A stretch of DNA of 64,000 nucleotides, taken from a virus. The DNA is taken from the IMG/VR virus record IMGVR_UViG_3300050503_000029, one strand, 5' to 3'. The translations under genes were made by a program, and so were the position numbers. The notes beneath the pieces are model-generated. The model was not told where the DNA came from and made no database searches. It saw only the letters and a program-made list of their open reading frames with translations. Positions 7,404 to 58,016 of this stretch are shown here, piece by piece; position 1 is the stretch's first letter, and every line of letters begins with the position of its first letter.

Positions 7404-7452
7404 CCTGATCGGTCAGTGGGGTGTATCGTGACGGTGAGTGAAGGAGGTGAAC

Positions 7453-7641
7453 ATGTCCGATACCGTACCCGAGGAGCCGATCCCCAGTGATCCGCCCGAG
7501 GAGGGGAACGACACTGTGGGTGTCGTGCCGACGGGAGGGCCCGTGACCGAGGGTGAGCCGCCCCCGCCACCGCCGCCCATCGTGACGCCCGACCCGGGAC
7601 CGCCGGATGAGAACTACCCGCCGGTGGACCAGCCCGGCTAG
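7453..7641 (+). CDS. proline-rich small protein
   Basis: ATG 7453 lies 5 nt after AAGGAGGTG. 62 aa with PPPPPPPIVTPDPGPPDENYPPVDQPG. Confidence 0.5.
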   Translation: MSDTVPEEPIPSDPPEEGNDTVGVVPTGGPVTEGEPPPPPPPIVTPDPGPPDENYPPVDQPG

Positions 7642-37755: not shown

Positions 37756-38528
37756 TAGATCGGCCTCCAAGGGTTACTGGAGAAGTCGTTCTCCAGATCC
37801 TCAGCGCCGGTGATTCCCACCGTCTCCGCCACAGCCTTGCCCCGAAGGACGAGGGCCTGCTGGGGAGTGAGCGGGTCGATGGTACGAGTCCGCATCCACG
37901 ACAACTTGCCGAGGGCCTTCTTCGCCAACGGGCCAAGGATGTGCATGTCCTCGGAACCCTTGCTGTACTGGAGACCGTCCTGGCTGACCAGCGTGGCATC
38001 CGACCTGCCGGTGAGGTCGATCTGAGCCGCCATCCATGCAGCCTGGTAGGACTCCGCCTTCTTGAGGAGGCGATGATCCCGATTGACCAGGCTCGGCCTT
38101 GCGTCGATGATCACTCCCGCGAACATCTCGATCACGTGGTAGGCCGCGTCCAGTTGAGACTGGGTGATGGTCTGACCCGTGATCGCCGACGCTTCGGCTG
38201 GTGTGGCCCAGGTCCCGGCAAGAGCCGCAGTAACCGTGACCTCGACAACCTCCGACGCGGAGACCGCCTGGGACTGAGCGTCGGTTCCGCTCCACACCAC
38301 CAGGTAGTTGCCGAGCTGTGCGTCGGTTGCCGGCGTCCAGTTGTAGGTGTAGATACCGACCGCAGGGTGGTTGATCCCAGCCGTGGTGGCAGGCACCGTG
38401 TTGTCGTTGTCAGACAGCCGGATGATGTGGACGGTGGGACCGGAGACGAGGTCAACCGACGGGCCGCCGCCGTACTCGTACCACTGTGACAGGAGGGTGA
38501 TCGTGGAACCCTGGGGTACGCTGGTCAT
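37755..38528 (-). CDS. head-tail adaptor with N-terminal Ig-like domain
   Basis: 257 aa. N-terminal beta-rich domain (ITLLSQWYEYGGGPSVDLVSGPTVHIIRL ... YLVVWSGTD). C-terminal helical part (QSQLDAAYHVIEMFAG). Confidence 0.55.
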   Translation of the reverse strand: MTSVPQGSTITLLSQWYEYGGGPSVDLVSGPTVHIIRLSDNDNTVPATTAGINHPAVGIYTYNWTPATDAQLGNYLVVWSGTDAQSQAVSASEVVEVTVTAALAGTWATPAEASAITGQTITQSQLDAAYHVIEMFAGVIIDARPSLVNRDHRLLKKAESYQAAWMAAQIDLTGRSDATLVSQDGLQYSKGSEDMHILGPLAKKALGKLSWMRTRTIDPLTPQQALVLRGKAVAETVGITGAEDLENDFSSNPWRPI

Positions 38529-39703
38529 GGCGTCGGAAACCTCCCAGGGTGAACGAACGTGGCTTGGGCCGGGTCGTTCAAGGCAGTGGCTGTACGGACC
38601 ACACAGATGTACGCGATGAGGACCGCGTCACTAGCGAGTGGGTGGGGAGTGAACGCGCCGGTTCCGATTGCTGCCACCGCGGCTGACAGAGAGGAGTACA
38701 CCTGCTGGCCGTACTGAACCATGTAATCCGCGTTGGTGTCAGACGTCGGGATGAGCCAGACACGCTGGATCGTTGTTGAACCGGCGCCGCCTCCTACCGC
38801 GGTGAGGACGCCGTTCAGGTCGTAGTTAGCAGGGTCCAGCACATTGACCACCGGAGGTGTGGATACTCCCGGCTCACGGAGAACCCGACGGAACGACAGA
38901 GCCACCTCGGCCGCGTCGTTCTGGACGTGCGGGTCACGAGTCAGTGTCGGACCGTTGTAGTGGTTGAACGCCCGGGCGAACACGGCACCGGTGGCATGGT
39001 CAATCGACAGGTTGGCCCCATTGGGGCTGACCCGGAGACCGGACACGCGGAACGGGCCGAGGCTGTTGAGGAGATCCCCGAACTGGTTGAGCGGGGTCAT
39101 GGCGATGTCCGGCAGGGTCTGGCACTGAACCAGCGCGCCGGCCACCGTGTCGTACGCGGTGACGCCCAACTGGAGAGACGTCCGCCGCTCCGAGTTCGTG
39201 GGCTTGGTGGCCTGCTGGATGATCGAGCCGTCGGCCGCCATCCGCCACCAGGTGATGCTACGGGTCAGACTCGCACCGGTGAGGGCGGGAGTCAGGTTGC
39301 TTGACTGCACCCTGGTTACGGTCGGGTTGTTGAAGTCGGTCACCGTGTCCACGATGTAACCGGTCAACCCCGAGATAGCCACGGTGGTGTTGTCCCAGAT
39401 GTTCATCTCTCCGCCGCGGATCACGCCCGTGGAGAGAGTCGAGGCGAAGGCCTCTTGGACATCTACGTCCACGCCGCCGGCAGACAGGTTCAGGGGCCCC
39501 GTCATCGTGTCGCCGGCGGCGTTGACGTACCGCGTCTCAGACGCGGCGGTGATCGCCTGTGCGGAGTTGTCCACGTATCCACGTGAAGCCGCCGCCAGTG
39601 CAGTGTCGGGGGAGGAGTCAGGCAGAACCAGCTCGCCGGTCATGGTGTCGCCAGAGGTGTCCACCTTCTGGGGATCGCCTGATGTGTAGCCGGTCGCTGC
39701 CAT
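38525..39703 (-). CDS. fibre-like protein in the head module (possible head fibre/decoration)
   Basis: 392 aa. Two copies of the tail-fibre-type motif GDTMTG(E/P)L (TSGDTMTGELVLP, AAGDTMTGPLNLS). Located between the capsid and connector genes. Confidence 0.6.
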   Translation of the reverse strand: MAATGYTSGDPQKVDTSGDTMTGELVLPDSSPDTALAAASRGYVDNSAQAITAASETRYVNAAGDTMTGPLNLSAGGVDVDVQEAFASTLSTGVIRGGEMNIWDNTTVAISGLTGYIVDTVTDFNNPTVTRVQSSNLTPALTGASLTRSITWWRMAADGSIIQQATKPTNSERRTSLQLGVTAYDTVAGALVQCQTLPDIAMTPLNQFGDLLNSLGPFRVSGLRVSPNGANLSIDHATGAVFARAFNHYNGPTLTRDPHVQNDAAEVALSFRRVLREPGVSTPPVVNVLDPANYDLNGVLTAVGGGAGSTTIQRVWLIPTSDTNADYMVQYGQQVYSSLSAAVAAIGTGAFTPHPLASDAVLIAYICVVRTATALNDPAQATFVHPGRFPTP

Positions 39704-39727: not shown

Positions 39728-40222
39728 TTACTTGACCGGGACGGCGTAGTGGACGTGGATCACGTCACCCGCCGGCACCGTGTCGGTGTGCTCGGCCTCA
39801 CCGCCGGCGAGGGTGTGTCCCGCCTGCTGTGCGACCATCGCCGCCATCTTCGCGTTCTCGTGGTGCCACGCGGAGTCCGCGAGGTACGGGCACGAGTGCG
39901 AGACGGTGACGGTGTGAACGAACGTGGCGACGGATGACGAGGCAACGCCCTGTGTGCCCGTCTCGGGCTCCGTCGGCGTCGCCGGGTCAGTCTGGTCGGC
40001 CGGCCCCTGTTCGTCGTCCTGCGGGCTCTCCAGCTCCGCGAACGGGTCTCCCTTGTCGAGACCTTCGGGGTCGGTGTCGGTAGACGGCACTTCGGTCTCG
40101 GATCCGTCGCATCGCTCTCCGGCGACCTTGTGGACCTTGATCTTGGTGCCGTTCTCCTTCGTGCCAACCGGGTGGCCGCACTCGGGACAGTCGACCTTGA
40201 CTTCCTCGTCCATGTTGTTCAC
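39728..40222 (-). CDS. hypothetical protein with N-terminal zinc ribbon
   Basis: 164 aa. CPECGHP ... ERCDG, an acidic Pro/Thr linker, then a C-terminal domain. Immediately downstream of the capsid gene. Confidence 0.6.
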   Translation of the reverse strand: MNNMDEEVKVDCPECGHPVGTKENGTKIKVHKVAGERCDGSETEVPSTDTDPEGLDKGDPFAELESPQDDEQGPADQTDPATPTEPETGTQGVASSSVATFVHTVTVSHSCPYLADSAWHHENAKMAAMVAQQAGHTLAGGEAEHTDTVPAGDVIHVHYAVPVK

Positions 40223-47382: not shown

Positions 47383-48381
47383 TCAAGACGTGATGGCGTT
47401 CAGCCACATGGGAGCGGTATGGGTCGTCGTCCTGTTGTCAGCCACGTACTTCTTCGCGGCCCGACCGATCTCGGCGAACATCTCCGGGTCGTCCACCGAG
47501 GCCTTCAGATGACGGCTCCACATGTGGTCGTCCTTGACGAGGAGGCCAGTCTCGCCGTGAACGATCGAGCGGTACGGCGCCACGTCAGAGGCGATGGTCG
47601 GGATACCCAGGGCGGCCAGCTCCAGGTACTTGATGTCCGACTTGGACTGGTTGAAGTGGCTGTCCGCGAGAGGTGCCACCCCCACCGTGTAGTCGATGGT
47701 GCGGAAGAAGTCCTCCGGCGTCGGCACCCACTTCGTATGATGGCACTGTGCCGGCGGGAGCTTCATCCACTCCGCGTAGTCCATGCCGATCGTGTGGAAG
47801 GTCTTGCCGGGGTTCCTCTTCAGGAACGTGGACATCCCGTGGCGGAGCCTCGTGAAGTCACCGTGGTGTGTGGGGCTCCCGCCCCAGCCGACGTGGTGGT
47901 TCTTCTCCGCCTCGTGTTCAAGGAGCCAGGCCGGCACCGCGTTCGGAACCACGTGGATGTTCCGGTGACCGGTCTGTCGGAACACCTCGTCGCCCAGCTC
48001 GGGAGTCGAGACGGTGACCACGTGCGCCACCTGGATGTTCTCCTTGAGCCGCTTCTGGATGCCCATGTCCCGGAAGAAGTAATAGGCCTTCTCGTTCGCC
48101 GGGTCGATGTTCCAGAGGTCGTCGTCCAGCTCATAGACCAGCTTCTTCTGGCCCTCGCGGGCCCAGCGCTGCCAGAGCTTGGACGGTCCCTCCATGCACA
48201 CCCGCTGGCCGATCACGATGTTGGCCAGGTCCTTGGCCTTGTCGGTGATCGTGGAACCGAGACCCAGCACCAGGTTCGGGTCCATCTCCTTCATGGCCAT
48301 GAACGGGAAGCGGATGCGGTAGGCCTGACAGCCGGAGGCGTCTGCCGCCCAGCCCCAGATGCGAAGAGGTTGGGTCGTCAC
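47383..48381 (-). CDS. glycosyltransferase (GT4/GT1-like, GT-B fold)
   Basis: GTG 48381 (GTGA overlap with the upstream stop). C-terminal sugar-donor motif LAALGIPTIASDVAPYRSIVHGETGLLV. Confidence 0.8.
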   Translation of the reverse strand: MTTQPLRIWGWAADASGCQAYRIRFPFMAMKEMDPNLVLGLGSTITDKAKDLANIVIGQRVCMEGPSKLWQRWAREGQKKLVYELDDDLWNIDPANEKAYYFFRDMGIQKRLKENIQVAHVVTVSTPELGDEVFRQTGHRNIHVVPNAVPAWLLEHEAEKNHHVGWGGSPTHHGDFTRLRHGMSTFLKRNPGKTFHTIGMDYAEWMKLPPAQCHHTKWVPTPEDFFRTIDYTVGVAPLADSHFNQSKSDIKYLELAALGIPTIASDVAPYRSIVHGETGLLVKDDHMWSRHLKASVDDPEMFAEIGRAAKKYVADNRTTTHTAPMWLNAITS

Positions 48382-48893
48382 GGCTTGGCCTCCAGACTGG
48401 CGATCATGGCGCACTGCCAGTCCACTCGACTGGTGACAGGCCACGCGGAGAGTTCAGCGCTGGCGATGCTGACGTGTCGCACGTCTTGCACCCCAGAACG
48501 CCTCAGGACGCGCTCTAGGCGATCGGGGGTGCACTCCCAGAGGTGTACGTCGTTCGCCCAGCGACCGGCGCCGTGGACGACGTCCTGGAGCTTGATGCCG
48601 TACAGCCTGCCGGCGCGGTCGAGTGCCCGAGCACGGTCACAGTCCGGACCCACCACGGCGATCTCGACTCCCGGCACGCATCGCTCCCACAGCTTGGAGA
48701 GCGCCGGCGCGATGGTGCCGAGGGCGAGGTGTTCGAGGACGTGACCGAGGTAGACGTGGGTCACCCCCTGGATCTCGTCGGGGAGGTTCATGAGGTCACC
48801 CTGGATGTCCGGCTTGACCTCGTCGTTCCTCTCGATATCCATGTTGGTCCAGCCGTCGGCACGGTGGTTACCACACCCAACGTTGAGCTTCAC
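48378..48893 (-). CDS. class I SAM-dependent methyltransferase
   Basis: 171 aa. Motif I KLNVGCGNH and post-I/II LGHVLEHL. Confidence 0.7.
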   Translation of the reverse strand: MKLNVGCGNHRADGWTNMDIERNDEVKPDIQGDLMNLPDEIQGVTHVYLGHVLEHLALGTIAPALSKLWERCVPGVEIAVVGPDCDRARALDRAGRLYGIKLQDVVHGAGRWANDVHLWECTPDRLERVLRRSGVQDVRHVSIASAELSAWPVTSRVDWQCAMIASLEAKP

Positions 48894-49942
48894 TGGCCGA
48901 CCTCCAGTGCACGCGGGTTGTCCTGGTACCAGTGGACGGTCTGGATGAGGCGGTCCACGAGATTGACCGGCGGGGTCCAGCCGAAGTTGGCGAGCTTGGT
49001 CCCGTCCAGGCCATAGTGCATGTCATGCCCCGGCCGGCTGGTGTGGAAGTTCACCATCTCGAAGTTGCCGTCCACTCCGATGATCTCGGCCAGGGTCTCG
49101 GCCACCTCCAGGTTGGTCGCCCGCTGACCCACGATGTTGAACCGGTGAGGCTCCGCCGGCATGTCGGGGTAGTACGTCAGGTGGCCGGCGTGGCGAGGCG
49201 ACGAGGTGATGAGGTCGAACTTCTGGGTTAGCCACAGCCAGGCGTCGGCAAAGTCCTCGATGCCGATCCAGCAGCGGCTCCCACTCTCGCCCTCGGGAGA
49301 CGAGTGGATGGTCACCGGCTCGCCGGCGGTGAGGGCGCGGATGGTCTTGGGGATGAACTTCTCCGGGTGCTGCCGCGGACCGATGAGGTTCATGGTGTTG
49401 GTGATGACCAGCGGGATACCGAACGCCCGCCAGTACGAGTAGGCGATGGCCTCCTGAGCGGCCTTGCTGGCGGCGTAGGGGTTGCTCGGCTTGAGCGGCG
49501 ACCACTCCGTGTGCGGCGCGTCCTTCGAGTCGTCCAGCGGGCCGAACACCTCGTCCGTGGACATGTGCAGGAAGATCCGCGGCTGGACCTCCCGGGCGAA
49601 CTCCAGGACGTTGGTGATCAACGCCACGTTGTTCCAGATGAACGGCGCCGGGTCGGTGAGGCTGCGGTCGACGTGGGACTCCGAGGCGATGTTCCAGATG
49701 AAGTCGATGGTCGGCAGGTCGTCCCCGAACAGGTCCGCGGTGAACGGCATGGACAGGTCGCACGGGACGACACGGATCCGGTCCGGGAACTGGTCACGGA
49801 GAGCCACCAGGTTGGACTGGCTTCCCATGTGCCGCATGGTCGTGGGGCACACCACGTACCAGTCGGTCGACTGTATGACCCGCTCCAGGGCAGCGGATCC
49901 TACGAAGCCGGAGGCTCCCGTGAGGAAAAGGGTCTTACTCAT
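48890..49942 (-). CDS. NAD-dependent sugar-nucleotide 4,6-dehydratase/epimerase (SDR, RmlB-like)
   Basis: 350 aa. Rossmann LFLTGASGFVGSA, STDEVFG, catalytic YAASKAAQE. Confidence 0.85.
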   Translation of the reverse strand: MSKTLFLTGASGFVGSAALERVIQSTDWYVVCPTTMRHMGSQSNLVALRDQFPDRIRVVPCDLSMPFTADLFGDDLPTIDFIWNIASESHVDRSLTDPAPFIWNNVALITNVLEFAREVQPRIFLHMSTDEVFGPLDDSKDAPHTEWSPLKPSNPYAASKAAQEAIAYSYWRAFGIPLVITNTMNLIGPRQHPEKFIPKTIRALTAGEPVTIHSSPEGESGSRCWIGIEDFADAWLWLTQKFDLITSSPRHAGHLTYYPDMPAEPHRFNIVGQRATNLEVAETLAEIIGVDGNFEMVNFHTSRPGHDMHYGLDGTKLANFGWTPPVNLVDRLIQTVHWYQDNPRALEVGQ

Positions 49943-51140: not shown

Positions 51141-51290
51141 GTAGCCCTCACTCGTCGTAACGGTTGTGTCGGTGCAGTCTATCAAAGAATGGGCCCAAGA
51201 TCGAGACCGCACAGATTGTCACCGTGAGTGATTCAGACATTTGGGGACGGAACACCGATTCCTGCTGGTCAGGTGCTGTTTTCGAGACGC

Positions 51291-53798: not shown

Positions 53799-53872
53799 GC
53801 CCTCATGGTCTAGAGGCTTAGGACGCTGCCCTCTCAAGGCAGAGGCCGCCGGTTCGAATCCGGCTGGGGGTA
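53799..53872 (+). tRNA. tRNA-Glu (anticodon CTC)
   Basis: Manual fold: acceptor GCCCTCA/TGGGGGT. D arm GTCTAGAGGCTTAGGAC. Anticodon stem CTGCC/GGCAG with loop CTCTCAA. T arm GCCGG-TTCGAAT-CCGGC. Discriminator A, no encoded CCA. Confidence 0.8.
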
Positions 53873-53993
53873 CGGTAGCCCGCTCCTCGGACGGGTGAAG
53901 GGAAGCACGGTCAGAAGGTTATGGGTGGCCGTGCACGGAGTCGGGGTTGAGAAGGGTTTCCCGGATCCACTAATTGCATAGTGTGAGAGTGAG

Positions 53994-54066
53994 GGCGGCA
54001 TACCTCAGTTGGTAGAGGAGTTCCCTTATAAGGTTCCAGTCGCGGGTTCGAGCCCCGCTGCCGCTA
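53994..54066 (+). tRNA. tRNA-like gene, anticodon TAT (Ile2-type), aberrant anticodon stem
   Basis: Acceptor GGCGGCA/TGCCGCT. D arm CCTC-AGTTGGTA-GAGG. T arm GCGGG-TTCGAGC-CCCGC. Loop CTTATAA. The anticodon stem GTTCC/GGTTC has two T:T mismatches. Confidence 0.55.
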
Positions 54067-54440
54067 CTCAGGAGTAGGCACCGATGCCATGAATCAATCC
54101 CCCTGGAAGTGGGGAGCGAATGAGCTAAGGATACTCCGAGAAGACCCTCCGCGGGGTTGCGTCCCTGTTGAGTGGCCATGGTCTGTGAGTCCCGAGTAAC
54201 GCCCTGGGCGAGAGTCCAGCCAGTCTCTGGCATGACGCGATGGCCAACCCCCTAGCTGGTGAGATTTGGTTCCCGCCGCTAGTCGACCGTCCGTGGGTCG
54301 TTGCCTCTTGGGGGAGGTCATGCGATCCACGGGCGGTTTTCGATAGACTCTCGTGGGGCTGGGGGTTGCGTCAACCGACGTGTCCACGGGCCCGGCCCCA
54401 CGAGAATGATTCACCCCCTCCCGAGACGAGTGAGGACTAG

Positions 54441-54736: not shown

Positions 54737-54811
54737 TACCGCACGAGGGTGGGCCTCAGCCAAGGTGCTGGGGCTGTTATCTCTGGCAGGTCCCTAAAGC
54801 CTGCCCGCAAG

Positions 54812-54884
54812 CGCCCGTAGCTCAGTTGGCAGAGCAGGGGATTCTTAATCCTCGTGTCACTGGTTCAAGTCCAGTCGGGCGTAC
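54812..54884 (+). tRNA. tRNA-Lys (anticodon CTT)
   Basis: Acceptor GCGCCCG/CGGGCGT. D arm GCTC-AGTTGGCA-GAGC. Anticodon stem GGGGA/TCCTC with loop TTCTTAA. T arm ACTGG-TTCAAGT-CCAGT. Discriminator A. Confidence 0.85.
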
Positions 54885-54956: not shown

Positions 54957-55143
54957 GTAGCCCCTCGTGTCCGCTGTTCGTACGGCAGCGCCGGCGTTAC
55001 GGTTGTCGGAGACCAAGCCGAGTGAAGTCCGACGACACGGGGATTAACGGGAGAGGTTCCCACTAGTGTAGGTCTGTGGGAAGTGAGTGGCCGGGACAGA
55101 CAAATACCGGTCGGCCTCTCCCGTCCTCATGGAAGGATTGGAC

Positions 55144-55788
55144 ATGGTCCTTTTCACACCGGACCAGCACAGGGCGTTCCGCAACGCGGAGCCGTTCCCG
55201 CATCTCGTCGTGGACGGCTTCTGGTCCGACGACGAACTCTCCATGGCGGCAGCCGAGTTCCCCGAGCCGGCGGACCCCAGGTGGAAGACGTACCGCGACC
55301 CCAAGGAGTACGGCAAGCGGTGTATGGATGAGCCCAGCACCTGGTCGAGGGGTGTGGGACAGCTTCTTGCCCACATGGCCTCCGAGGTCTTCTGTGAGTC
55401 CCTGGAAGACCTGACCGGCTTCGCCCCACTCACGGCGGACGCGGTCGGTGGCGGCATGCACATGACCGGCGAGGGTGGCCGGCTGGACATGCACGTGGAC
55501 TTCAACGTCCACCCCGACGGCAAGCGCCACCGCCGGCTCAACGTCCTCACCTTCCTGAACCCCGAGTGGGAGAAGGAGTGGGGAGGTGTCCTGTACCTGG
55601 GACCGAACCGGGACATCGAGGTCCTGCCGGTCTTCAACCGGATGGTGATCTTCGCGTGTTCGGACGAGTCGTGGCACGGGCACCCCGAGCCGATCGTGGG
55701 TGGGCACTGGCGGAAGAGCCTGGCCTGTTACTTCTACACCCCCGTGGCCGAGGAGCTCATCCCCCACACCACCACGTGGTTGACGTGA
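55144..55788 (+). CDS. 2OG-Fe(II) oxygenase (prolyl-4-hydroxylase-like)
   Basis: ATG 55144 after GGAAGGATTGG. HxD in RLDMHVDFN, distal His in ESWHGHPEP, basic residue in WRKSLACYFY. Confidence 0.8.
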   Translation: MVLFTPDQHRAFRNAEPFPHLVVDGFWSDDELSMAAAEFPEPADPRWKTYRDPKEYGKRCMDEPSTWSRGVGQLLAHMASEVFCESLEDLTGFAPLTADAVGGGMHMTGEGGRLDMHVDFNVHPDGKRHRRLNVLTFLNPEWEKEWGGVLYLGPNRDIEVLPVFNRMVIFACSDESWHGHPEPIVGGHWRKSLACYFYTPVAEELIPHTTTWLT

Positions 55789-56483
55789 CGGCGCCGTACC
55801 GAGTGGCGGTGATCCCGACCCGCGACCGCCACCGGATGCTGTTCGACGCGGTGCTCCCCCTCGTCTCGCAGGTCGACCGCGTGATCATCGTGGACAACCG
55901 CTCGGCACCGTACATCTCCCGCCACACGTGGGGCCTCGTGGAGTGGTGGGACGAGGACCTGATCCACGTCATCCCTCACAACGAGGACCCGCCCAACATC
56001 TCTCGCCTGTGGAACCTCGGCCTGGTCGCGGCTCAGCACATGGCGGAGGAAGAGGGCCTGTCGCAGTGGGACGTGGCCGTCCTGAACTCCGACGTGGTCG
56101 TGCCGTACGAGTGGGTGGAGAAGCTGTCCGCGGCGATGCGTTCAACGGACGCTGTCCTCGCGTACCCCGACCAGTTCGGGGGCAGCCAGCGCGTACTCCA
56201 CAAGGTCGCCGAGCCGGTGCCGCTCAACCAGAGGATCACGGGGTACGCCCACATGATCCGCGGTGAGTCGGGTCTCAGGTACGACGAGACCATGGCCTGG
56301 TGGTACTCCGACGACGACCTGGACTGGACGGCTCGCCAGCGCGGCGGAGCTCTCCTCGTGCCGGGGTTGAGTGTGGAACACCGTGACCCGAACGGGTCCA
56401 CGAACGCACGGCCCGAGCTCCAGGAGCAGGCCGGCCGCGACCGCCAGACGTTCATCACCAAGTGGGGAAGGGCACCGCACTAA
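55785..56483 (+). CDS. glycosyltransferase family 2
   Basis: GTG 55785 (GTGA overlap). VAVIPTRDRH N-terminus and DxD-type YSDDDLD. Confidence 0.8.
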   Translation: MTAPYRVAVIPTRDRHRMLFDAVLPLVSQVDRVIIVDNRSAPYISRHTWGLVEWWDEDLIHVIPHNEDPPNISRLWNLGLVAAQHMAEEEGLSQWDVAVLNSDVVVPYEWVEKLSAAMRSTDAVLAYPDQFGGSQRVLHKVAEPVPLNQRITGYAHMIRGESGLRYDETMAWWYSDDDLDWTARQRGGALLVPGLSVEHRDPNGSTNARPELQEQAGRDRQTFITKWGRAPH

Positions 56484-57025
56484 TGCACCTTGAGGCAAGA
56501 GCCGGTCTGGACCGGATGATCGACCACGTCGGCATCGACCGACAGTACCCGTACCGCTGCCTGGACCTGGGCGGGCGGGACATCAACGGTGGCATCCGCG
56601 ACCTCATCCCGAACGGGAAGTGGCAGGGAGTGGACATCGAGGCCGGCCCGGGAGTGGACCTCGTCCGCGACTGCACCATGGGTTGGCTGGACACCCTGCC
56701 GCGGTTCGACATCGTGGTGTGCACGGAGGTCCTGGAGCACGTGGAGAAGTGGCGGGACATCCTCCGCACCTGTGCCCAGGCCCTCGACACGATGGGCAGC
56801 CAGCTCCTGTTCGTGACCGCGGCGTCCACGGGACGACGTGCGCACGGAGCGAGTGGGGCAATGGACCCGGCCCCCGGCGAGTGGTACCGCAACGTGCCGG
56901 CAGAGGACGTGGCCGAGGAGCTGGGCCACCTGTTCAACAACTCCGGCGCGGAGTACAACCCGGTGCCTGGGGACGTGTACGCGTGGGCGACGCTGCCGCG
57001 ATGGGGAGTGGTCAACGGTGAGTAA
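56483..57025 (+). CDS. class I SAM-dependent methyltransferase
   Basis: ATG 56483 overlaps the TAA (TAATG). Motif I RCLDLGGRD, motif II-III IVVCTEVLEHVEKW. Confidence 0.75.
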   Translation: MHLEARAGLDRMIDHVGIDRQYPYRCLDLGGRDINGGIRDLIPNGKWQGVDIEAGPGVDLVRDCTMGWLDTLPRFDIVVCTEVLEHVEKWRDILRTCAQALDTMGSQLLFVTAASTGRRAHGASGAMDPAPGEWYRNVPAEDVAEELGHLFNNSGAEYNPVPGDVYAWATLPRWGVVNGE

Positions 57026-57617
57026 GCCGGAGATCACGGTGGTGGTCCCGTTCCACACCCACCGTGAAGTGAACGGCTACCTCCAGCGTGCGGTTGCCTC
57101 GATCCAGCGTCAGACCATGCCTGACGTCCAGGTGATCGCCATCCGCGACGAGGAGCGGCAGGGGGCGCCGGCCACGCGTCATGCCGGGCTCATGCTCGTG
57201 GACACGCCCTGGGTCGCGTTCCTCGACTCCGACGACGAGATGGACCCGTGCCACCTGGAGCGGATCTACGCGTGCGCCCAGGAGACGGGAGCGGACTACG
57301 TCTACCCGTGGTTCCGTGTGCAGGGCGGGAGCGACCCGTTCCCTCAGTTCTTCGGCCAGCCGTGGGACAACGCCCAGCCGCACCAGACCACAGTGGTGAC
57401 GCTCGTCCGTACTGAGCTGGCCCAGGCCGTCGGCTTCCACGACCCCTCGGGCAAGGGCAACTGGCCGGACGGCCAGCAGTACGGGGAGGACTGGCTGTTC
57501 ACCCTGGGGTGCATGGACAAGGGCGCGAAGATCGTCCACCACCCCGAGCGCACCTGGACGTGGCATCACCACGGGGCCAACTCCTCTGGCATGCCGGGTC
57601 GCGGGGACGCTCGCTAG
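57018..57617 (+). CDS. glycosyltransferase family 2
   Basis: GTG 57018. ITVVVPFHTH N-terminus, DxD in VAFLDSDDEMD. 199 aa. Confidence 0.8.
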   Translation: MSKPEITVVVPFHTHREVNGYLQRAVASIQRQTMPDVQVIAIRDEERQGAPATRHAGLMLVDTPWVAFLDSDDEMDPCHLERIYACAQETGADYVYPWFRVQGGSDPFPQFFGQPWDNAQPHQTTVVTLVRTELAQAVGFHDPSGKGNWPDGQQYGEDWLFTLGCMDKGAKIVHHPERTWTWHHHGANSSGMPGRGDAR

Positions 57618-57623
57618 TCCGCC

Positions 57624-57652
57624 TTGACACGGGGGAGCGCGGGGGATACTGT
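57624..57652 (+). promoter_or_regulatory. cassette promoter TTGACA-N17-TACTGT
   Basis: CGCCTTGACA context, -10 followed by TGTCCTTGTCAGCAAGAC. Confidence 0.55.
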
Positions 57653-57692
57653 TGTCCTTGTCAGCAAGACCGACGAGAGAAGGGCACACAGC

Positions 57693-58016
57693 ATGACCCG
57701 CGCGAACCCGAGTAATACGGACATCGCCCAGCAGTGGGCGGATCGCTACGTCGCCCAGCACGACTACCTCACTCGTGTGTACGCGGCACTGACCAACGAG
57801 TCTGGGCACCAGCTCATGACCACGGACAAGTGCACGGAGTGTGACTACGCCGTGACGGCCGACTACTTCGAGAACAGCGCCCACTGGATCATGTGGGACC
57901 CCCAGAGCCAGACCCACATCGTGGTGATCGGCTGTGAAGGGTACTGGCTGATCAACCCCGCGTCAGTGGGTCTCGACCCTCAGATGTGGTCGGGTATCGA
58001 GGGCGTCAACATCTGA
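57693..58016 (+). CDS. cassette 1 protein (107 aa), hypothetical
   Basis: ATG 57693 after GAGAGAAGGG, inside track ORF 57624..58016. Contains CTEC. Confidence 0.6.
   Translation: MTRANPSNTDIAQQWADRYVAQHDYLTRVYAALTNESGHQLMTTDKCTECDYAVTADYFENSAHWIMWDPQSQTHIVVIGCEGYWLINPASVGLDPQMWSGIEGVNI

Follow-up and report, generated by a model that had tools for sequence, protein, structure and literature searches.

Four overlapping genes at positions 55144-57617 (+) of a 64,000-nucleotide stretch of viral DNA (IMG/VR record IMGVR_UViG_3300050503_000029; the whole stretch is called here the window) encode an oxygenase dependent on 2-oxoglutarate (2OG) and Fe(II), two glycosyltransferases (GTs) of family GT2, and a methyltransferase (MT) of the S-adenosylmethionine (SAM) type. 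This operon, its relatives in other phages, and the modification that its products may carry out are considered here. The window is from a Streptomyces phage of the genus Zukovirus: positions 55000-57700 are 98.4% identical in nucleotide sequence to phage KimJongPhill (82.5 kb) and 79% to phage Zuko, and the remaining window aligns to both genomes with 92-97% coverage. The same four genes are annotated in KimJongPhill (gp110-107) and Zuko.

55144-55788 (+): 2OG-Fe(II) oxygenase, 214 amino acids (aa); KimJongPhill gp110, there 'hypothetical protein'; PF13640 (6.4e-17), PF13661 (2.5e-7)
55785-56483 (+): GT2a, glycosyltransferase of GT-A fold, 232 aa; gp109; PF00535 Glycos_transf_2 (2.7e-5)
56483-57025 (+): class-I SAM methyltransferase, small-molecule/sugar type, 180 aa; gp108; Methyltransf_23 (6.9e-8), PHROG 32762 (2.6e-15)
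57018-57617 (+): GT2b, second GT-A glycosyltransferase, 199 aa; gp107; PF00535 (2.2e-13), PHROG 14775 (1.4e-50)

The Pfam matches of the operon (2OG-FeII_Oxy_3, Glycos_transf_2 twice, Methyltransf_23) all exceed the curated cut-offs. Consecutive genes overlap by 4, 1, and 8 nucleotides (nt), clear Shine-Dalgarno sequences are found at three of the four starts, and a scan of the operon for promoters and terminators found no promoter-like or terminator-like site within it. Reading frames and Pfam matches agree with an earlier note on this DNA, which had placed four co-directional, overlapping genes for an oxygenase, a GT2, a methyltransferase, and a second GT2 exactly here; its assignment of the first product to the prolyl-hydroxylase-type oxygenases with an HxD...H site is borne out by the PF13640 and PF13661 matches and by intact catalytic residues. 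As judged from dN/dS between the window and Zuko (0.25-0.37 for each gene), the four genes are under purifying selection.

A second set of sugar-pathway genes lies at 47383-49942 on the other strand:

48890-49942 (-): NDP-hexose 4,6-dehydratase/epimerase (short-chain dehydrogenase/reductase, SDR), 350 aa; gp4; Epimerase (2.3e-42), GDP_Man_Dehyd (3.4e-35)
48378-48893 (-): second small methyltransferase, 171 aa; gp5; KimJongPhill annotation and N-terminal 'LNVGCG' motif
47383-48381 (-): GT-B (GT1/GT4-like) glycosyltransferase, 332 aa; gp6; Glyco_trans_1_2 and Glyco_trans_1_4 (1.5e-6)

The translation of the dehydratase gene shows GxxGxxG, STDE, and YxxxK motifs. The second methyltransferase has no Pfam match at 1e-3. 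The GT-B gene is directly upstream of a small-terminase-like gene, the terminase, and the head genes. The count of three GTs, two methyltransferases, one dehydratase, and one oxygenase given in the earlier note holds, the second methyltransferase by annotation and GCG motif.

The cassette in phages and prophages

Homologs were monitored in 153 loci, coming from 73 viral contigs, six actinobacterial genomes, and 74 other genomes. The loci were searched as six-frame translations, with the window's own proteins as queries. Matches are given below for viral contigs, actinobacterial prophages, and other genomes, followed by the median gap to the oxygenase gene.

GT2a: 54/73, 6/6, 1/74; 15 nt
MT of the operon: 56/73, 6/6, 3/74; 0 nt
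GT2b: 13/73, 3/6, 0/74; 1470 nt
Dehydratase (gp4): 12/73, 1/6, 10/74; 542 nt
GT-B (gp6): 12/73, 5/6, 4/74; 694 nt

All GT2a matches and 64 of 65 MT matches are on the strand of the oxygenase. Oxygenase and GT genes, coupled in the window by the 4-nt overlap with GT2a, are adjacent in 60 of the 79 phage and prophage loci, and GT2a is seldom found apart from the oxygenase. On homology and gene order, the oxygenase, the first GT2, and the MT make up a conserved trio, adjacent and co-directional in about 55 of the 73 viral contigs and in six of six actinobacterial prophages. GT2b is an accessory member of the cassette, with homologs in 16 related loci, on the oxygenase's strand in all, and relatives at about 42-43% identity in Arthrobacter phage Atuin. 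Dehydratase homologs reside beside the oxygenase in 23 loci (L008 and L010, for example), and homologs of the second methyltransferase (gp5) adjoin it in 7.

Two arrangements can be distinguished, written here with g for GT-B, O for the oxygenase, a for GT2a, M for the MT, b for GT2b, and E for the dehydratase. The closest relatives (type 1, 53-62% identity) carry a single operon g-O-a-M-b, with or without E, in which the GT-B homolog is directly upstream of the oxygenase. Because these relatives hold both gene sets in one operon, the two sugar loci of the window are best read as one pathway, split in Zukoviruses. Distant contigs (type 2, 35-45% identity) carry the bare trio a-O-M between major capsid and head-tail adaptor genes. 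The type-2 placement, in the order portal-protease-major capsid-[GT2a-oxygenase-MT]-adaptor-tail tube, was found in roughly 20-25 contigs and in an Amycolatopsis prophage.

The 'bacterial' homologs of the oxygenase at 55-60% identity are prophage genes. The S. canus prophage has the order GT1-oxygenase-nucleotidyltransferase (NTP_transf_3)-MT-x-GT2, with endolysin and resolvase genes nearby, the Amycolatopsis pretoriensis prophage the order portal-protease-major capsid-126 aa-GT2-oxygenase-MT-Laminin_G_3...tail tube. Hosts of prophage cassettes belong to Streptomyces, Amycolatopsis, Saccharothrix, and Actinosynnema. Three phage groups unrelated to one another carry the trio within or next to genes for virion structure. 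In the isolated phages Pontimonas phiPsal1 and Synechococcus S-CBS4, the head module includes a GT and MT cassette that has no oxygenase.

The methyltransferase of the phiPsal1 cassette (major capsid-GT1-MT-GT2-neck; L163:5929-6447) is on the strand opposite all flanking structural genes, according to both annotation and tblastn. Phage Atuin (194 kb) has, at L009:3394-8675, a GT-B homolog (gp165, 28%), a GT2b homolog (gp169, 43%), a second GT, and a nucleotidyl transferase, with no oxygenase; these genes sit among tRNA, RNA-ligase, and DNA-repair genes.

Compared with the KimJongPhill record, the window runs in reverse complement and is circularly permuted, the ends of the record falling near window position 51154. 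The window is continuous across about 51154/51155, where the linear record has its physical ends; because it crosses them uninterrupted, it is read as a circular permutation, or a concatemer junction, of a KimJongPhill-type genome in reverse complement. The KimJongPhill annotation includes no integrase and no repressor. Three tRNA genes are located directly upstream of the operon:

53799-53873 (+): tRNA-Glu(CUC)
53994-54067 (+): tRNA-Ile(UAU)
54811-54884 (+): tRNA-Lys(CUU)

A terminator-like hairpin (54752-54775) stands before tRNA-Lys, and Zuko has two tRNAs only at this site, in changed order. A role in tRNA modification was considered, ALKBH8 being an oxygenase-MT fusion and the three tRNA genes lying upstream, and was dropped because the trio elsewhere occupies head modules without tRNA genes.

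Beyond the window, KimJongPhill gp78 (55860-56747 of the record; L003:5860-6747) is annotated as 'thymidylate synthase' and is highly divergent. The Pfam match to Thymidylat_synt is merely 1e-7, and the CMP 5-hydroxymethylase MilA and thymidylate synthases match equally closely (4.2e-6 vs. 3.7e-6). Neighbours are genes for dCMP deaminase, dUTPase, and TMP kinase and an unknown gene of 353 aa; the phage also has ThyX. These matches make gp78 a possible pyrimidine hydroxymethylase; if it is one, the DNA would be expected to be modified.

Enzyme classes and links to sugar metabolism

Residues H117-x-D119, H178/H180, and R190-x-S192 of the oxygenase are invariant across 48 homologs; K58, R130, and R166 are invariant as well. 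The AlphaFold2 model (mean predicted local distance difference test, pLDDT, 96.3) has the double-stranded beta-helix of the PF13640/PF13661 class, and the HxD...H triad and the 2OG-binding RxS are in place. The single sequence finds weak matches among solved structures, the family profile finds eight, which in order of rank are OGFOD1 (1.9e-9), P4H, PasI, DdPhyA, PHD, PolD, PPHD, and Tpa1. The fold search returned PolD, Tpa1, OGFOD1, PasI, PhyA, PPHD, HygX, and PHD2 at template modelling (TM) scores of 0.6-0.7. PolD is the top Foldseek match (8.3e-9), PasI and HygX align at TM 0.68 and 0.61, and identity to these enzymes is 13-19%; DdPhyA (6t8m) reaches TM 0.70-0.75, with a profile E-value of 1e-3. 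Neither AlkB nor TET/JBP enzymes were found among the top 50 folds of the Protein Data Bank (PDB) or the eight profile matches, and no PLOD/LH3-type enzyme among the top 50 folds.

Because the family profile and the fold of the model agree, the oxygenase is assigned to the prolyl-hydroxylase-like clade, whose members include protein hydroxylases as well as oxygenases of sugar nucleosides. OGFOD1 is a prolyl hydroxylase of a ribosomal protein; the substrates of PolD and PasI are octosyl-acid nucleoside phosphates, that of HygX is an aminoglycoside. Matches to PolD, PasI, and HygX are as good as those to the protein hydroxylases, and the enzyme class therefore implies no protein substrate. The structural check that the earlier note had proposed for telling protein from nucleic-acid or small-molecule hydroxylases did not separate protein from small-molecule enzymes, with PasI and PolD interleaved among the former.

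Close homologs of the oxygenase number 472 in a database clustered at 90%, and a profile search of 1.84 billion representatives gave 4,645 clusters, 1,100 of them at E <= 1e-30. Within 50,697 deposited phage genomes, by tblastn, the enzyme is present only in KimJongPhill, Zuko, and two uncultured marine viruses. PHROGs hold no match for the oxygenase or GT2a, and libraries of defence systems matched the oxygenase with one generic 2OG domain model and nothing else. Members of the family are usually auto-annotated as "Tpa1-like proline hydroxylase" or hypothetical.

Both GTs of the operon show the features of the GT2 class: PF00535 matches, the GT-A fold in the AlphaFold2 model of GT2a (pLDDT 96.1), and DXD-type motifs, NSD (101-103) and DDD (176-178) in GT2a, DSD (70-72) in GT2b. 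The nearest folds of GT2a are TarS, TarP, RmlT, and polypeptide GalNAc-transferase (TM 0.56-0.67), teichoic-acid GTs and polypeptide GalNAc-transferases matching its generic GT-A fold equally. Its sole sequence match in the PDB is GmaR, the flagellin O-GlcNAc transferase, over about 40 residues only (E = 0.0036). The methyltransferase of the operon matches Pfam Methyltransf_23/12/11 only, with no DNA_methylase domain and neither a PC[QN] nor a [DNS]PP[YFW] motif. Transmembrane-like segments were found in none of the seven sugar-pathway enzymes of the two loci, all of which are predicted to be soluble.

Pfam domains reveal Methyltransf_23::oxygenase proteins (P0097, P0131, P0147) and a GT2::oxygenase protein (P0208); further extensions, read by eye, are N-terminal and GT-A-like (P0143, P0165, P0220) or C-terminal and SAM-MT-like (P0137, P0170). 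The best structural match among predicted viral structures is a Mimiviridae protein of 616 aa (UniProt A0A5B8IHX4; TM 0.87, root-mean-square deviation 1.7 Å, 29% identity) named GDP-mannose 4,6-dehydratase (GMD); name and match together imply an oxygenase::dehydratase fusion. The best 120 matches of a protein search with the marine oxygenase as query include no dehydratase fusion, and the giant-virus fusion is therefore supported by one Foldseek match. Every fusion partner identified is a sugar-pathway enzyme.

The same links are seen in gene neighbourhoods. The oxygenase homolog of marine virus AG-345-E08 shares 4 nt with the gene of a GMD-type dehydratase. Next come genes for a cytidylyltransferase-like protein and a PfkB sugar kinase; the operon also includes GT25, two 2OG-FeII_Oxy_5 proteins, and DUF6445. 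A Kyanoviridae genome has the order GMD-epimerase-GT11-GT2-oxygenase-GT-Methyltransf_24-GT1-SDR...aminotransferase. Marine phage contigs of 155-183 kb carry the oxygenase, a protein of about 990 aa (Methyltransf_31/GT2/DUF6445), MT24, and a 412-aa GT2::Methyltransf_23 fusion, the large protein and the fusion coming directly after the oxygenase homolog (L168:7708-12607; L169:7702-12592); in L168, Peptidase_S74 and RCC1-repeat (fibre-type) genes come next to the set. Three or four different 2OG oxygenases are found in some marine sugar clusters. Through the GMD fusion, the GMD overlap, the 23 dehydratase loci, and the NTP_transf_3 neighbour, the oxygenase is genetically embedded among nucleotide-sugar and sugar-modifying enzymes.

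Possible roles of the cassette

Both loci may constitute one glycosylation pathway, which in the cytoplasm and late in infection puts a short, O-methylated, oxidatively tailored glycan on a virion protein; this reading is preferred here, tentatively. Dehydratase gp4 and host enzymes would provide nucleotide sugars, and GT2a, with GT2b and the GT-B enzyme, would move them onto the acceptor. The oxygenase would hydroxylate or oxidise the sugar, either as nucleotide sugar after the 4,6-dehydratase or once transferred, and the MT would cap a hydroxyl, possibly the freshly made one. We infer that the acceptor is a virion protein, that the steps run in this order, and that the oxygenase acts on a sugar, not on a protein side chain.

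A virion protein is proposed as the target because of the positions in head and fibre modules and because of the precedent of mycobacteriophages, whose own GTs glycosylate the virion (Freeman et al. 2023, Cell Host Microbe, as cited in PMC11256854 and PMC13313380). Tailoring of the sugar is favoured by the fusion and coupling to GMD-type dehydratases, by the MT::oxygenase fusions, which would then join consecutive steps, by the type-2 order a-O-M, which matches transfer, oxidation, and methylation, by the oxygenase-free GT and MT cassettes at the same locus, and by the clusters with several different oxygenases. The presence of PolD, PasI, and HygX, acting on sugar-type substrates, among the top structural matches of the oxygenase points the same way.

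Several observations weigh against this reading. The search for an acceptor gave candidates only, and the ends of the capsid (...AAAVLEVLA) and major tail (...RPFRYIDQT) proteins have no obvious Ser/Thr-rich tail. The four genes of the window are surrounded by small unknown genes and tRNAs, outside the head module. The nearest characterised enzyme by profile is a protein prolyl hydroxylase, OGFOD1, and the evidence for the giant-virus fusion consists only of a name in a database and a structural alignment. To our knowledge, hydroxylation of sugar C-H bonds is undocumented for this exact oxygenase family. The 74 non-actinobacterial chromosomes are heterogeneous, each glycan-related family accounting for 2-4 of 119 immediate neighbours; the commonest flanks are GT2, Methyltransf_23, Wzy_C, epimerase/GMD, Acyl_transf_3, GT1, flippase, and carbamoyltransferase, and such neighbourhoods hint only weakly at a glycan role.

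Candidate acceptors were looked for in the window and in type-2 loci. The earlier note had named a poly-Pro protein, a 'sortase-like' protein with a Pro-rich linker, and a protein with a Pro/Thr linker. The first two correspond to KimJongPhill gp59 (hypothetical) and gp46 (a peptidase), outside the block annotated as structural; the window has a single poly-Pro stretch (7438-7638). The third is the most plausible of the candidates proposed, by its position only:

39728-40222 (-): gp14, 164-aa protein directly after the major capsid gene; N-terminal CxxC...C zinc-ribbon-like motif; acidic Pro/Thr-rich linker DPATPTEPETGTQG; no Pfam match

A gene at 38525-39703 (-), with the capsid-proximal genes on one side and the head-tail adaptor gene on the other, encodes a 392-aa protein. 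No Pfam family matches this protein, which contains two 'GDTMTG(E/P)L' motifs of a kind known from phage fibre repeats; it may serve as a fibre or decoration protein of the head, hence as another candidate acceptor. In type-2 loci a conserved small open reading frame (ORF; about 75-130 aa, 26 matches) lies between the major capsid gene and the trio (L034:6406-6642, L037:6131-6427, L046:5624-5926, L024:3775-4197, L005:8168-8635, and about 20 others), with the motif W.A.DP.V...P..F..DP...VE(Q/K)ATA.PGE(K/R)R..RR. Neither the window nor the type-1 loci have this ORF, whose product could be a dedicated substrate or else a head protein specific to the lineage. No run of at least five collagen-like G-X-Y triplets was found in any frame of the window, and a Skp1 homolog was not searched for.

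The earlier note had itself proposed hydroxylation-primed glycosylation, in which the oxygenase hydroxylates Pro, Lys, or another residue of a virion protein, GT2a glycosylates it, the other GTs extend the glycan, and the MT caps it. The coupling of a prolyl-hydroxylase-type oxygenase to GTs and an MT stands; a protein substrate and a priming role are weakened by the links to sugar enzymes, and the proposal as a whole is judged doubtful. The profile ranking, with OGFOD1 (1.9e-9) followed by P4H, DdPhyA, and PHD, and the folds of Tpa1, OGFOD1, PHD2, and PPHD (TM 0.60-0.70) speak for it, as do the near-exclusive pairing of GT2a with the oxygenase, the Pro/Thr-rich small protein directly after the capsid gene (39728-40222), and the small ORF with the ...ATA.PGEKR motif at the capsid-adjacent position of type-2 loci. 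The minimal trio beside the capsid gene would be a self-sufficient system using host nucleotide sugars, and the GT-A::oxygenase fusions (P0208 by Pfam; P0143, P0165, and P0220 by eye) share the domain order of LH3 and Mimivirus L230. Against it, fusion or translational coupling with GMD-type enzymes would have no role, MT::oxygenase fusions would link the first and the last step of the pathway, and related GT and MT cassettes at the same locus do without any oxygenase. Some sugar clusters have several different oxygenases, which argues against priming, where one step would not need so many. The window has no collagen-like repeats, the top 50 folds include no PLOD/LH3-type enzyme, and we know of no report of glycans linked to hydroxyproline (Hyp) or hydroxylysine (Hyl) in bacteria or phages. 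The specific case of a protein hydroxylase making a Hyp or Hyl acceptor on a phage structural protein, with GT2a glycosylating it and the MT methylating the sugar, seems unlikely.

Another possible target of the GTs, the MT, and the oxygenase is the host cell wall, whose teichoic-acid-like or other glycopolymers they might decorate during infection or lysogeny. This could block superinfection or stop progeny from adsorbing to debris, as prophage TarP does in S. aureus. The nearest folds of GT2a do include the wall-teichoic-acid GTs TarS, prophage-encoded TarP, and RmlT; the cassette is present in prophages of the four actinobacterial genera named above, cellular homologs of the oxygenase tend to neighbour Wzy_C, flippase, GT, and acyltransferase genes, and the four genes of the window are outside the structural block. 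Yet insertion between capsid and adaptor genes, in roughly 20-25 contigs, is an uncommon location for a gene of lysogenic conversion, neither an integrase nor a repressor is annotated in KimJongPhill, and the phage cassette, its enzymes all soluble, has no membrane-associated component or flippase. The GT2a folds are moreover generic GT-A matches (TM 0.56-0.67) that include polypeptide GalNAc-transferases equally, and modification of the envelope is considered improbable. Hypermodification of DNA, with MT, oxygenase, and GTs building a glycosylated base or the GTs acting on pre-replicative hydroxymethyl-pyrimidines, is very improbable. The same three enzyme classes do occur in known phage clusters for DNA glycosylation (bioRxiv 10.1101/2023.12.21.572611), and KimJongPhill has the divergent ThyA-fold gp78, at about 4e-6 to both CMP 5-hydroxymethylase and thymidylate synthase. 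However, the MT is a 180-aa protein of the Methyltransf_23 type without DNA_methylase domain, PCQ, or [DNS]PP[YFW] motif; the oxygenase is of the PF13640 type, with no TET_JBP Pfam match and no TET/JBP or AlkB among its folds and profile matches; the trio resides in head modules, not beside replication or nucleotide-metabolism genes; and some 20 kb of the KimJongPhill record separate gp78 from the cassette.

If the preferred reading, tailoring of a virion glycan, is correct, a new nucleotide-sugar or glycan hydroxylase from the prolyl-hydroxylase clade would be paired with an O-methyltransferase. If priming holds, hydroxylation-primed protein glycosylation would extend beyond eukaryotes and giant viruses; as a protein hydroxylase, the enzyme would take part in the first hydroxylation-primed O-glycosylation of the bacterial and phage world, parallel to the collagen and Skp1 systems and widespread in soil actinophages and marine cyanophages. 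The family is large (the 1,100 clusters at E <= 1e-30) and auto-annotated, and a functional assignment would therefore correct many annotations. KimJongPhill and Zuko being cultured on tractable Streptomyces hosts, the question is directly testable.

Comparison with known systems

The earlier note had regarded hydroxylation-primed glycosylation as not established in an actinophage, and the literature searched is in line with this, holding no paper on the cassette, on glycosylation in these phages, or on hydroxylated residues in phage capsids. Human LH3/PLOD3 and Mimivirus L230 carry out collagen-type glycosylation of hydroxylysine, L230 being a viral example of hydroxylation-primed glycosylation. 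As in the family described here, a hydroxylase of the 2OG-Fe(II) class and a GT-A enzyme act together and are joined by fusion; in contrast, the oxygenase of the cassette is OGFOD1/PHD-like, not PLOD-like, no G-X-Y substrate is present, and a methyltransferase is an obligatory partner. The cytoplasmic Skp1 pathway of Dictyostelium and Toxoplasma, in which the prolyl hydroxylase PhyA makes the acceptor for Gnt1 and further soluble GTs, resembles the cassette in that DdPhyA matches the oxygenase by fold and profile, and differs from it in having no methyltransferase or nucleotide-sugar enzymes. PolD (polyoxin), PasI, and HygX (the orthoester of hygromycin B) belong to the same fold clade and are likewise clustered with sugar-modifying enzymes. 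They are distant in sequence, however, serve secondary metabolism, and have no association with GT-A/MT trios or with structural genes of phages.

Clusters of C5-MT, 5mYOX/TET, and GT genes, sometimes with epimerases and extra GTs, have been described in phages (bioRxiv 10.1101/2023.12.21.572611). They feature DNA_methylase and TET/JBP domains in a DNA-metabolism setting, the cassette Methyltransf_23 and PF13640 in a head-module setting.

Glycosylation of mycobacteriophage virions, a recent finding, reportedly shields the particles from antibodies; glycans are said to sit on capsid and tail-tube subunits of Che8, Corndog, and Myrna, and putative GTs to occur in some Streptomyces phages. We know of no 2OG oxygenase in the mycobacteriophage system as described. 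Like the cassette, that system relies on soluble phage GTs, often accompanied by methyltransferases, and some of its cassettes are near a genome end, as here. The mycobacteriophage proteins are reportedly O-glycosylated at the C-terminus; the capsid and tail proteins of the window end without an obvious acceptor tail. A tblastn search with the oxygenase, GT2a, GT2b, the MT, and GT-B against the 50,697 phage records gave no mycobacteriophage match at E <= 1e-3, no sequence relationship being thus detected for the five enzymes tested. The cassette suggests that glycosylation machinery of a different kind, without sequence relationship to the mycobacteriophage one, is widespread among uncultured actinophages and that marine phages have a related form of it. 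Judged by gene content and neighbourhood, the cassette is probably a variant of phage virion glycosylation, distinguished by an obligatory prolyl-hydroxylase-like oxygenase.

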